Source: a virus (lineage: Duplodnaviria; Heunggongvirae; Uroviricota; Caudoviricetes). Taken from it: 4,511 bases of DNA. The DNA lies in IMG/VR virus record IMGVR_UViG_2713896778_000015. One strand, 5' to 3'. Both the position numbers and the translations under genes were made by a program. A model generated the notes under the pieces. The model made no database searches, was not told the DNA's origin, and saw nothing but the letters and a program-made list of their open reading frames with translations. Every line of letters starts with the position of its first letter. The first letter of the stretch is position 1. Shown one piece after another: positions 146 through 4,511 of this stretch.

Positions 146-240
146 AGAAATGAAAAAAGGCCACGCAGTTGCGCAGCCTGATAAACCCTGGTTAAAATCC
201 ACACGATAACAACACAACAATATCAGTATCTCATGCTATT

Positions 241-265
241 GCCCGAACCCATTCGGGCATTTTTT
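241..265 (+). terminator. Intrinsic terminator-like hairpin, plus-strand orientation
   Basis: GCCCGAA-CCCA-TTCGGGC stem-loop (241-258) followed by A-TTTTTT (259-265). On the minus strand the same hairpin is not followed by a U-run. Confidence 0.5.
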
Positions 266-327: not shown

Positions 328-528
328 GCATGTTTGCATGCACATTCTTTTTCTTGCATGGTGCCGGGTGCCTCCCGGTGAATTCAGTACCAGCACCTGA
401 ATCCGCGATTATCCCATATACCTACTCACTGATTGCCCCTCCGCACAGGGGGATTCACCATGCCAGTTTCTTTTAACAAACTCCCCGCAAACCAGACAAC
501 AGTCAACCGCCTGAATTGTGAGACATTT

Positions 529-554
529 AAAAAAAAGGCCCGCAAAAGCGAGCC
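529..554 (-). terminator. Intrinsic terminator just downstream of the tRNA-like gene
   Basis: On the minus strand: GGCTCGC-TTTT-GCGGGCC hairpin (one mismatch) at 554..537, followed by a run of 8 T (536..529). It begins 15 nt after the tRNA-like 3' end. Confidence 0.5.
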
Positions 555-568
555 AGGGAAAATAAGTG

Positions 569-644
569 TGGCGCGTTGTACTGGATTCGAACCAGCGACC
601 TGGCGATTATGCGTCGCTCGCTCTCACCACTGAGCTAAAGGGCC
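569..644 (-). tRNA. tRNA-like gene, 76 nt, CAU anticodon, Ile2/Met-type body; acceptor stem does not pair and position 33 is G, so probably a chimeric or pseudo tRNA
   Basis: Minus-strand sequence GGCCCTTTAGCTCAGTGGTGAGAGCGAGCGACGCATAATCGCCAGGTCGCTGGTTCGAATCCAGTACAACGCGCCA. D-arm GCTC/AGTGGTGA/GAGC and T-arm GCTGG/TTCGAAT/CCAGT are canonical. Anticodon loop is CGCATAA. The 5' strand GGCCCTT pairs with the 3' strand ACAACGC only at the two terminal positions. Confidence 0.55.
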
Positions 645-653
645 GGGAGCAGA

Positions 654-682
654 ATAATAACGGTCCGTAATTAATTCCGCAA
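654..682 (-). promoter_or_regulatory. Candidate sigma70 promoter for the tRNA-like gene
   Basis: Minus strand: -35 TTGCGG (682..677), 17-nt spacer, -10 TATTAT (659..654). The -10 ends 9 nt upstream of the tRNA 5' end. The -35 is weak. Confidence 0.3.
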
Positions 683-707
683 TAAAAAACCCGCTCAATG
701 GCGGGTT
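681..707 (-). terminator. Intrinsic terminator ending the upstream (Rha-like gene) transcript
   Basis: Minus strand: AACCCGC-CATTGA-GCGGGTT hairpin (707..688) followed by TTTTTTATT. Its T-tract overlaps the proposed tRNA promoter -35. Confidence 0.5.
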
Positions 708-943
708 CTGGTAAAGTTCATGCGCTTGGTTCGCCTCGCGATACAGCTTTGCGAAGCGTACCGGAATTGAAGCAGTTTATGTGCAAAAATGCAAGAACTT
801 TTTTAAAGCTGCATCAACCTTTCCACCAGTTTATCTCTGCGAACAACAAACCAACCATTGGCTCTCGCCAGTTCCAGCCATGACTCAAGGGAAATAACAA
901 TATCATCATCCCGTAACTGAATTGTGGAAACAGTGACACCACC

Positions 944-1362
944 TCACTGATAACAGAGAACTCGCGTGTCGTAACTTTTCTGGCATGCAACTGGCGCTGA
1001 CGGATCCTTTTGACTGAAATAGCAGTCTTCCAGTTTTTCGAACACATCCCACGCCTGATCGGTTTCGAGCATTTTTGCGTGGCGGGCTGCTCCGCGTTCT
1101 GTCCAGAGGATAAGGGAGCGGGCTTTGGGAGAGATGGGATTTTGTGAGTAGTTTAAAGCTACCCGCAATTCTTTAAGGTCATTACCAACAACTTTGAAAA
1201 NNNNNNNNNNNNNNNNNNNNNNNNNNNNNNNNNNNNNNNNNNNNNNNNNNGAATACGCACCGGCTCAGTGCCGTAAAGCTGCGCCAAAAGTTCGGTGGTA
1301 ATAACAGGAATCCGGTTATGGGTGATCGGGGAGAGAGTTTCAACAGAAATTTGAGTTGTCAT
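944..1362 (-). CDS. Phage regulatory protein, Rha/antirepressor-like (tentative), interrupted by the N-run at 1201-1250
   Basis: ATG at 1362..1360 with GAGGG 7 nt upstream. N-terminus MTTQISVETLSPITHNRIPVITTELLAQLYGTEPVRI. After the N-run the frame of ORF 944..1168 is open back to the gap (FKVVGNDLKELRVALNYSQNPISPKARSLILWTERGAARHAKMLETDQAWDVFEKLEDCYF...). The two track ORFs are one gene whose frame is broken by the arbitrary gap length. Family call is from motif recall only. Confidence 0.45.
1201..1250. other. Run of 50 N (assembly gap or masked sequence) inside a gene
   Basis: Literal N characters at 1201-1250; ORF frames on either side differ. Confidence 0.95.
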
Positions 1363-1375
1363 AATGACGCCCTCT

Positions 1376-1443
1376 GGTGGTTTCTAAACTATCACCACCG
1401 TCAGGTTCCAATCATCGGGTGGTGAGACGCACAGGGTTGGAAC
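1376..1443 (-). promoter_or_regulatory. Structured 5' leader of the Rha-like gene: interleaved complementary segments (pseudoknot-capable or alternative hairpins) next to the ribosome-binding site
   Basis: Plus-strand coordinates: GGTGGT 1376-1381, TCACCACC 1392-1399, GTTCCAA 1405-1411, GGTGGTGA 1418-1425, TTGGAAC 1437-1443. 1392-1399 can pair with either 1418-1425 or 1376-1381; 1405-1411 pairs with 1437-1443. The Shine-Dalgarno (complement of 1366-1370) lies directly 3' of the ACCACC segment on the mRNA. Confidence 0.3.
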
Positions 1444-1520
1444 TACCGGGAAACCGACCGGCGAGCTTTTCAGCTCCCCCATGCGCCCCACCATAATTCA
1501 GATGTGCGCGTGCATACGAC

Positions 1521-1545
1521 AATAAAAAACACGCTCGCGGCGTGT
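1521..1545 (-). terminator. Intrinsic terminator downstream of the Q-like gene (tR'-like)
   Basis: Minus strand: ACACGC-CGCGA-GCGTGT hairpin (1545..1529) followed by TTTTTATT. On the plus strand the hairpin is followed by GTCTGTCGCGG, so it is minus-oriented. Confidence 0.6.
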
Positions 1546-1606
1546 GTCTGTCGCGGTCTCTATCCGGGGTTCCAATCCCGACGCCAGATTTTGCTGGCGC
1601 GTGAGG

Positions 1607-1636
1607 AATATAGCCCCGGATAACAGATTGAGTCAA
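1607..1636 (-). promoter_or_regulatory. Candidate late promoter (PR'-like) overlapping the stop codon of the Q-like gene
   Basis: Minus strand: -35 TTGACT (1636..1631), 18-nt spacer, -10 TATATT (1612..1607). Predicted start near 1600, about 75 nt upstream of the terminator at 1521-1545. A 6-bp hairpin CGCCAG/CTGGCG (1582-1599) sits in the initial transcribed region. Confidence 0.45.
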
Positions 1637-3534: not shown

Positions 3535-4020
3535 TTAGTTTTGCTGTTCCATTTTAAACTTGATAGTTTCATACAAAACAATAGTTGCGCCTGTTTTACA
3601 TAATTCCCGGCTGTCATACGCGCGAGACCAATAACACAACCAGTTCTCGAGATCTTCTCGAGTATAGGTTTTGCAGGCCAGTCCCTCTGCCATTTCCACG
3701 ATTTCATCGCCTGGTGCTGTTAATTCATAGCCATTCAACAACAAGAAGACGTAACCAGCCATCATAGCTGTTCGTTTGTTCGCATTAGCAAACGGATGAT
3801 TCTGAATCAGACTTTCAATCAATACCGATGCCAGTACAAACATGTCATTAGTCTGTTCATACCATCGAACCATGCTGGGACGGGCCTGAGAAGAACTTAA
3901 GTTATCTGGACTCAGAACACCAACGAGCTCATCTGGCGTCTGTAATTCAATTAGGGAACGATTGATTTCAACAAGATCATCAACCGTAAGGTAATGCACT
4001 CCTTCAACAATCTCAGCCAT
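3535..4020 (-). CDS. Doc (death-on-curing) / Fic-family toxin-like protein, 161 aa
   Basis: Contains HPFANANKRTAMMAG, matching the Doc-type motif H-x-F-x-(D/N)-(A/G)-N-K-R rather than the Fic HPFx(D/E)GNGR. ATG at 4020..4018; the track start at 4029 is a TTG. Begins 18 nt after the stop of a small upstream ORF. Confidence 0.85.
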   Translation of the reverse strand: MAEIVEGVHYLTVDDLVEINRSLIELQTPDELVGVLSPDNLSSSQARPSMVRWYEQTNDMFVLASVLIESLIQNHPFANANKRTAMMAGYVFLLLNGYELTAPGDEIVEMAEGLACKTYTREDLENWLCYWSRAYDSRELCKTGATIVLYETIKFKMEQQN

Positions 4021-4038
4021 AGAGCACAATACCCATCA

Positions 4039-4218
4039 TTACACTTTTGAAAGTTCTTCCATTGCCTTCTCGTAACGAGAAAAACCGAAATCGAAAGCAT
4101 TTTTCACCTGCTCACGATGAGTGCAATTTTCATCGATAGCCGGGCGCGGAGCTGCCACAACGCTTTTATCGCGAGGGGGAATAGTCAATCGCGGGTGTTT
4201 TTTTAGTGCGTAGCTCAT
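4039..4218 (-). CDS. Small ORF upstream of the Doc-like gene, 59 aa; candidate antitoxin/partner, not in the ORF track
   Basis: ATG at 4218..4216 with AAGGGGGG 6 nt upstream and an in-frame TAA 15 nt further upstream. Translation MSYALKKHPRLTIPPRDKSVVAAPRPAIDENCTHREQVKNAFDFGFSRYEKAMEELSKV. Does not resemble Phd as far as I can recall. Confidence 0.45.
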   Translation of the reverse strand: MSYALKKHPRLTIPPRDKSVVAAPRPAIDENCTHREQVKNAFDFGFSRYEKAMEELSKV

Positions 4219-4263
4219 TGGGTGCCCCCCTTACTTCTCCGTCCTGTTCTTTAACAAAAATCA

Positions 4264-4429: not shown

Positions 4430-4511
4430 TTACTCCTCAGGTTCGTAGGCTACGAAGACAGCGACCTCCGTCTGGCCGGTTCGGATTCGTACCTCGCAGA
4501 GGTCTTTCCTC
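4430..4511 (-). CDS. Possible C-terminal end of a gene entering from the right edge (...RKDLCEVRIRTGQTEVAVFVAYEPEE-stop)
   Basis: Only one minus-strand frame is open across 4433-4510, ending at TAA 4432..4430; the other two frames contain stops. Weak statistical support (26 codons). Confidence 0.25.
   Translation of the reverse strand, partial: RKDLCEVRIRTGQTEVAVFVAYEPEE

Follow-up and report, generated by a model that had tools for sequence, protein, structure and literature searches.

A chimeric ileZ-argO tRNA gene of single origin, probably a pseudogene, in the late region of lambdoid prophages of Escherichia coli

The locus described here raises the question of whether a tRNA-like sequence with three well-formed arms, an acceptor stem that does not pair and a G at position 33 is a working tRNA gene, the remnant of one, or the trace of a different event altogether. 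The sequence comprises 76 nt on the minus strand (window 644..569) within the span 529-707 of a 4,511-nucleotide stretch of viral DNA, the whole of which we refer to as the window (IMG/VR record IMGVR_UViG_2713896778_000015). Its parts and the features discussed below are collected in Table 1, and tRNA position n corresponds to window position 645-n throughout. Our analysis indicates that the element is very probably a non-functional chimeric tRNA pseudogene, generated from an ileZ(CAU)-argN(UCG)-argO(UCU) cluster by a one-time deletion and then spread, as the remnant of this cluster, by mosaic recombination.

Table 1. Coordinates, in the window, of the chimeric element, its flanks and the nearby immunity RNAs
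Feature	Position	Strand	Extent and basis
Chimeric ileZ'-'argO tRNA pseudogene	569..644	-	76 nt; Rfam local match, ileZ/argO alignment, stem counts
ileZ-derived part	589..644	-	tRNA positions 1-56; 5' acceptor strand, D-arm, anticodon arm, 5' half of T-arm
Anticodon CAT	611..609	-	read in the ileZ-derived part
G at tRNA position 33 (U33->G)	612..612	-	comparison with intact ileZ
Crossover interval CTGGTTC, 7 bp	589..595	-	tRNA positions 50-56; common to ileZ and argO
argO-derived part	569..588	-	tRNA positions 57-76; rest of T-loop, 3' T-stem, ACAACGC, discriminator G, CCA
Native argO trailer and intrinsic terminator	529..568	-	hairpin 554..537, T-run 536..529; terminator scan, comparison with L002 and L003
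ileZ leader with weak promoter-like pair	645..682	-	similar leader 5' of ileZ in L002, L004 and L005
Upstream terminator-like hairpin, ACCCGC-CATTGA-GCGGGT and T6	684..706	-	read from sequence; Rfam Trp_leader local match
c4-a1b1 targets	1613..1561	-	Rfam, above gathering score
isrK	1600..1524	-	Rfam, above gathering score
C4 antisense RNA	1498..1415	-	Rfam, above gathering score

Outside two N runs, the window is 100% identical to the genome of E. coli O121 strain RM8352 (NZ_CP028110). A blastn comparison showed that each N run (278-327 and 1201-1250) has a fixed placeholder length of 50 bases, standing for 17 and 48 bases of RM8352 sequence, respectively; across both runs, window coordinates are offset from those of the true genome. 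This sequence belongs to the late-regulatory part of a lambdoid prophage. According to the annotation of NZ_CP028110, the minus strand carries, in this order, genes for a Doc-family toxin, DUF1367, DUF1364, DUF1133 and a truncated ORF6N antirepressor, followed by the tRNA-like element and, beyond the window, a DUF6645 gene, a holin and a lysozyme. The element is flanked by an ileZ leader and an argO trailer, and the locus lies 3' of the Q-region genes and 5' of an STnc100-type sRNA, an esterase and the lysis genes. Earlier work described a moron site 3' of Q/PR' that is followed by convergent sRNAs (Tree et al. 2014, PMC4104026). Here, Rfam places two convergent sRNAs 3' of the chimera, namely STnc100 at 492..328(-) with 111.8 bits and a full-length AgvB at 204-265(+) with 96.5 bits. 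The 3' end of STnc100 enters the N gap 278-327, and a weaker AsxR match (43 bits, under the gathering score) overlaps AgvB.

Other parts of the window hold further features of the same prophage. A set of P1/P7-type immunity RNAs, all exceeding their gathering scores, occupies 1415-1613(-) just 5' of the truncated ORF6N antirepressor ORF (about 1360..944, a pseudogene according to PGAP), and the isrK and c4-a1b1 matches within this set overlap on the same hairpins. PGAP annotation of NZ_CP028110 places a toxin gene of the Doc (death-on-curing) family and a small upstream ORF, likely the antitoxin, at 3535-4220(-) and the start of a hokD-type toxin locus at the window edge (4430-4511), with an IS3 element just outside. 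The prophage appears to be partly degraded.

Used as a query, the chimeric sequence is matched in two separate pieces by thousands of further E. coli genomes and by 283 sequenced phages, most of them Stx-converting. A "tRNA-Ile" gene contains one of the pieces, the other lies just past the second of two "tRNA-Arg" genes, and several phage records name the genes of this cluster ileZ, argN and argO. In two such loci (L002 and L003), ARAGORN identified three intact tRNAs with the anticodons CAT, TCG and TCT; ileZ and argO are 98 bp apart in the intact cluster. These phage and genome loci bear out the first-pass annotation of our window, which had been made from the sequence without database searches and had pointed to a tRNA cluster 3' of Q in Stx-type lambdoid phages.

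A base-by-base alignment assigned the two parts of the chimera to the two ends of this cluster. Positions 1-56 correspond to intact ileZ (L002 3040-3095) at all 56 positions except for T33, which is replaced by G, and positions 57-76 are identical at 20 of 20 positions to the 3'-terminal 20 nt of argO (L002 3270-3289). The aligned sequences are GGCCCTTTAGCTCAGTGGTGAGAGCGAGCGACTCATAATCGCCAGGTCGCTGGTTCAAATCCAGCAAGGGCCACCA for ileZ, GGCCCTTTAGCTCAGTGGTGAGAGCGAGCGACGCATAATCGCCAGGTCGCTGGTTCGAATCCAGTACAACGCGCCA for the chimera and ...GCAATCGGTCACTGGTTCGAATCCAGTACAACGCGCCA for the 3' portion of argO, and the sequence of the chimera that spans the junction is GGTCGCTGGTTCGAATCCAGTACAACGCG. The following 40 nt on the 3' side are the native argO trailer and terminator, colinear with intact clusters and, by comparison with L002 and L003, invariant except for one difference in the length of a C/T run. 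The switch point is bounded by the ileZ-type G49 (window 596) and the argO-type G57 and lies inside the common CTGGTTC (595..589), within a 22-bp T-arm block, GGTCNCTGGTTCNAATCCAG, in which ileZ and argO are identical at 20 of 22 positions. The genome search gave the same picture, with ileZ pieces aligning to query positions 1-64 except for two mismatches, at 33 and 57, and argO pieces aligning to query positions 45-92 except for a single mismatch at 49. The proposal that a deletion had fused the 5' part of an ileZ-like gene to the 3' end of a second tRNA gene, perhaps one for arginine, was thus borne out, as was the placement of the breakpoint within the T-arm, which the alignment to intact prophage clusters narrows to CTGGTTC.

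By comparison with intact clusters, 174 bp are missing, as the distance from the start of ileZ to the end of argO is 250 nt there and 76 nt in the fused form. The lost segments are the 3' end of ileZ, the entire argN and the 5' part of argO. In relation to a whole ileZ, the acceptor combination GGCCCTT/AAGGGCC is broken and the 3' strand is ACAACGC from argO. In relation to argO, the anticodon is CAT and the TCT of argO is absent, argO contributing only its last 20 nt and the trailer.

How much of a tRNA remains? According to direct pair counting, the D-stem forms four of four pairs, the T-stem five of five including a G49-T65 wobble, and the anticodon stem four of five, with an A27/C43 mismatch that is also present in intact ileZ. 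Comparison with the intact genes showed that G18-G19 and the T-loop (TTCGAAT) are retained in the window copy and that GTTCGAATC is present, and the fused gene encodes a CCA end. Rfam family RF00005 matches 638..579(-) with 37.3 bits (E=2.2e-05 for the whole window), in excess of its gathering score of 29 bits. With these pair counts and this score, the description of the D-, anticodon and T-arms as those of a convincing tRNA was accurate. The RF00005 alignment is local, spanning model positions 7-64 of 71 with model positions 1-6 and 65-71 outside, and the chimera exceeds the gathering score by virtue of its inherited D, anticodon and T arms alone. Intact ileZ, argO and argN score 72.5, 70.1 and 43.4 bits, respectively, all over model positions 1-71, and the chimera thus reaches half the score of intact ileZ. 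ARAGORN found no tRNA in the window and none in locus L001, and it called all three tRNAs in both L002 and L003.

In the chimera, the GGCCCTT of ileZ is placed opposite the ACAACGC of argO, and the acceptor stem is therefore unpaired. Of its seven pairs we counted two, G1-C72 and T7-A66, in agreement with the earlier judgment that this stem cannot pair. The minimum free energy fold of the chimera was no better than that of shuffled sequences (z = -0.97; 29 of 200 shuffles equally stable), by comparison to z = -4.03 and 0 of 200 shuffles for intact ileZ, and inclusion of the flanks gave z = -0.68 with no new helix arising. A different choice of boundaries did not yield a paired acceptor in ARAGORN, in Rfam searches of the window and of 520-720 at a permissive E-value, or in minimum free energy folding with and without flanks. 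The 5' end of argO, GCGTTGT, which is the complement of ACAACGC, has been deleted, and AAGGGCC is absent downstream.

The near-universal U33 of tRNAs makes the anticodon U-turn. The replacement of this invariant U by G, read previously from the single copy in the window (G at 612), is present in 25 of 25 fused copies, and intact ileZ copies examined have T at this position. RNase P, aminoacyl-tRNA synthetases, CCA maintenance and EF-Tu require an intact acceptor/T-stem helix. Judged from tRNA biology, neither RNase P nor the aminoacyl-tRNA synthetases, TilS or EF-Tu would be able to use the chimera as a substrate. Because the acceptor helix cannot form and U33 is replaced, its product is predicted to be unable to work in translation. 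The lack of function proposed here is thus a deduction from structure.

A terminator scan identified an intrinsic terminator downstream of the chimera, consisting of a hairpin at 554..537(-) followed by T8, and this part of the first-pass annotation stands. Its plausible promoter was not confirmed, as a sigma-70 consensus scan of 300-1000 on both strands was empty. The best candidate found by eye, TTGCGG (682..677) and TATTAT (659..654) separated by a 17-nt spacer, matches the consensus at three of six and five of six positions, and this total of 8/12 is under the scan threshold. Upstream of the tRNA-like sequence, the T-rich hairpin at 706..684(-) reads as a second terminator, not a promoter, and it matches the terminator part of the Rfam Trp_leader model. 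The terminator scan did not call this hairpin, which is visible in the sequence. A module at 686-760(-) that includes the upstream hairpin also occurs alone, at 98-100% identity and unannotated, in genomes without an adjacent tRNA sequence.

With this evidence at hand, other readings of the locus can be weighed. A working tRNA-Met or tRNA-Ile2 gene of unusual form is implied by the RefSeq label of the element, and this reading could draw on an Rfam score above the gathering score (37.3 versus 29 bits), on the PGAP call of tRNA-Met without a pseudogene flag in every copy listed, and on intact D-, anticodon and T-arms together with an encoded CCA. We consider it extremely improbable in view of an acceptor stem with two of seven pairs, an Rfam alignment that lacks positions 1-6 and 65-71, the negative ARAGORN result, a score half that of intact ileZ and a fold like those of shuffled sequences. 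Moreover, G replaces the near-universal U33, G18 is also lost in some copies, and no alternative boundaries restore a paired acceptor, GCGTTGT being deleted and AAGGGCC being absent downstream. Many integrases target the segment from the T-arm to the 3' end of tRNA genes, and hybrid tRNA genes at attachment sites normally restore a functional tRNA, attP carrying the matching 3' end. A scar of site-specific integration, that is, a host tRNA gene whose 3' part came from a phage attP (a hybrid attL or attR), would be in line with a crossover in the T-arm, in a 7-bp segment that lies between the T-stem inverted repeats much like a core site. A recent preprint reads tRNA matches near such prophage sRNAs as integration remnants (bioRxiv 10.64898/2026.05.13.724894). 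Here, however, both partners are phage genes, 98 bp apart in one cluster, and the flanks are the ileZ leader and the argO trailer, colinear with intact prophage clusters. The site is internal, between the Q-region and the sRNA, esterase and lysis genes, with no integrase nearby and no prophage end, and sequenced Stx phages hold the intact cluster at the same internal position. An attachment hybrid would be located at a prophage-chromosome junction with one host flank; both flanks of the chimera belong to the phage and lie deep in the late region. We therefore reject the recombination scar at a tRNA-type attachment core that had been put forward as an alternative, and we assign integration next to no probability.

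Two further readings accept the origin of the chimera from the cluster and differ in what became of it or in how it was made. The chimera might be transcribed as a tRNA-derived regulatory or decoy RNA, for example a stable tRNA-like piece of the late transcript that sequesters an enzyme with affinity for tRNA or works together with the neighboring Hfq-dependent sRNAs. Its position in a prophage region dense in sRNAs (STnc100 and AgvB; Tree et al. 2014, PMC4104026), the preservation of the leader and a strong terminator, and the identity of 23 of 25 copies across different flank contexts would suit such a role. By contrast, the structural signal amounts to no more than the inherited arms (z = -0.97 alone and -0.68 with flanks), compensatory changes that would create a new helix are absent, the observed variants strike conserved tRNA positions, and there is no promoter at the scan threshold. 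Identity among copies is likewise expected for a recently spread allele; constraint could in principle account for the 23 identical copies, and recent spread explains them equally well. Overall, a regulatory role appears very unlikely. Its more specific form, in which the chimera is made in a late or constitutive transcript, is stabilized by its three arms and the terminator, and serves as a tRNA-mimic decoy or sRNA partner (of TilS, MetRS, IleRS or Hfq, for example), strikes us as highly improbable; if it held, selection would explain the spread of the G33 allele through the prophages of several STEC serotypes. Several integrases are expressed in lambdoid polylysogens, and the same pseudogene could have been made by a tyrosine recombinase acting on two directly repeated pseudo-att sites in the T-arms, given that the T-stem inverted repeat CTGG...CCAG borders the 7-bp interval on both sides, in the geometry of integrase core sites. 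This route is unlikely, though less so than a role as an RNA, as the direct repeat of 20/22 bp explains the junction equally well, and the loss of argO in phage LC159, with breakpoints outside the T-arms, shows that other deletion routes operate.

The reading that we favor, a deletion within the phage's own tRNA cluster, would begin from an ileZ-argN-argO cluster in the moron region, which in lambdoid (Stx-type) prophages is flanked by the Q antiterminator and the lysis genes. A single event, either recombination or slippage involving the near-identical T-arms of ileZ and argO and with its crossover in CTGGTTC, would have removed 174 bp and joined the two genes. The acceptor helix of the product would have been unable to form, resulting in the loss of tRNA function. 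The changes of U33 to G and, in some copies, of G18 to A would be such as relaxed constraint predicts, with either the deletion or U33->G as the possible earlier event, and the fused allele would then have spread among the prophages of several STEC serotypes through mosaic lambdoid recombination. The deletion may have come about by slippage, by phage Red/RecT-type short-homology recombination or by a site-specific recombinase that recognized pseudo-sites in the T-arms. For RecA-type recombination, a crossover interval of 7 identical bp in a 22-bp block with 20 identical positions is short.

Did the fusion arise once or repeatedly? The 25 fused copies that we extracted, of which one is that of the window, two come from RefSeq loci and 22 from prophage contigs of IMG/VR, all carry G33, and 23 of the 25 are identical. 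The remaining two, on IMG/VR contigs L009 and L018, have G18 replaced by A in the D-loop (GTGG to GTAG). Both U33->G and the G18->A of some copies affect universally conserved positions, which would fit relaxed constraint. Among 5,426 complete E. coli genomes, a synthetic query combining the fusion with T33 had no exact copy, its single-piece matches all having one mismatch, and a synthetic query combining intact ileZ with G33 had no record at 99% identity or above. Fusion and G33 are thus completely linked, which indicates that the fused copies descend from a single ancestral allele. Recurrent independent fusions were considered and rejected, as G33 is present in every fused copy and in no intact ileZ.

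About 145 complete-genome records contain an exact copy of the 92-nt query, and the serotypes among the carriers listed include O157:H7, O121:H19, O45:H2 and O111:H8. The allele is found in two upstream contexts and on at least two prophage backbones. The first context is the terminator module of the window, with the hairpin carried by 15 of 25 copies and with 71 genomes covering at least 80% of a 261-nt query that includes this module. In the second context, the chimera directly follows a DNA-methyltransferase gene, for example in O111 strain 95JB1. Downstream, there are three flank variants, and in the copies examined an esterase-type gene always follows and stx never does. In IMG/VR, the fused allele is present in prophage contigs only (22). 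It is absent from the sequenced-phage collection, in which the 283 matching records contain intact or otherwise different clusters, and a scan for the exact junction in the species-representative genomes of GTDB gave no match.

The cluster as such is plastic. In phage LC159 (L005, AF548456, 600-830), the argO trailer comes directly after ileZ and argN, and argO itself is absent in its entirety, first and last base included; this variant cluster is located just 5' of stx2A, and its breakpoints are outside the T-arms. Other genomes have one Arg gene, or a "tRNA-Lys" or "tRNA-OTHER" in the cluster. The carrier genomes listed have 4-12 places that match these tRNA genes, and the presence of such other places in the same genomes can explain why the loss of tRNAs from one cluster is tolerated.

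In the public record, the chimera is treated as a gene. In PGAP annotation, window 639..569, equivalent to NZ_CP028110 1671112-1671182, is a "tRNA-Met" gene of 71 nt that carries no pseudogene flag. Every copy listed bears this label, and intact ileZ is labelled "tRNA-Ile". The change from Ile to Met presumably reflects the loss of the isotype signal in the acceptor stem. The label "tRNA-Met" is a systematic mis-annotation of the chimera, with a wrong isotype and with the consequence that counts of tRNA genes in STEC prophages, and arguments on codon supply that build on them, are slightly inflated. At the same time, the junction together with G33 provides a marker of single origin for tracing the recombination of late-region modules among the lambdoid prophages of O157, O121, O111 and O45. 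We found no description of the chimera, its breakpoint or its spread from a single origin in the searchable literature, a scope that does not extend to the first genome papers on phage 933W and Sakai.

Hybrid tRNA pseudogenes that originate from unequal recombination or deletion inside tRNA clusters are a known kind of event. As in known cases of this kind, the chimera keeps the internal arms, has lost acceptor complementarity and has then been mutated at invariant positions (G33 and A18). It is an ordinary pseudogene and implies no new mechanism. With the hybrid tRNA genes at the attL and attR sites of prophages it shares a junction in the T-arm and a foreign 3' part; unlike these, it takes its 3' end from a different tRNA species, has its acceptor destroyed and is internal to the prophage. 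Its position in the late region is the same as that of the ileZ-argN-argO cluster of Stx-converting and related lambdoid phages (Stx2a_1447, AP012536; Stx2a_WGPS2; phage 2851; Nil2/Nil3), from which it differs by 174 bp fewer, the absence of argN, an unpaired acceptor and T33->G. The moron layout of Tree et al. 2014 (PMC4104026) is also found here, with STnc100 and AgvB just past the chimera. In comparison with the reading given in bioRxiv 10.64898/2026.05.13.724894, the tRNA match adjoining STnc100 is here the phage's own cluster, as matched in 283 phage records. Matches to tRNA genes near prophage sRNAs such as STnc100 can thus stem from a tRNA cluster that belongs to the phage itself, whole or as a remnant, and are not necessarily scars of integration.
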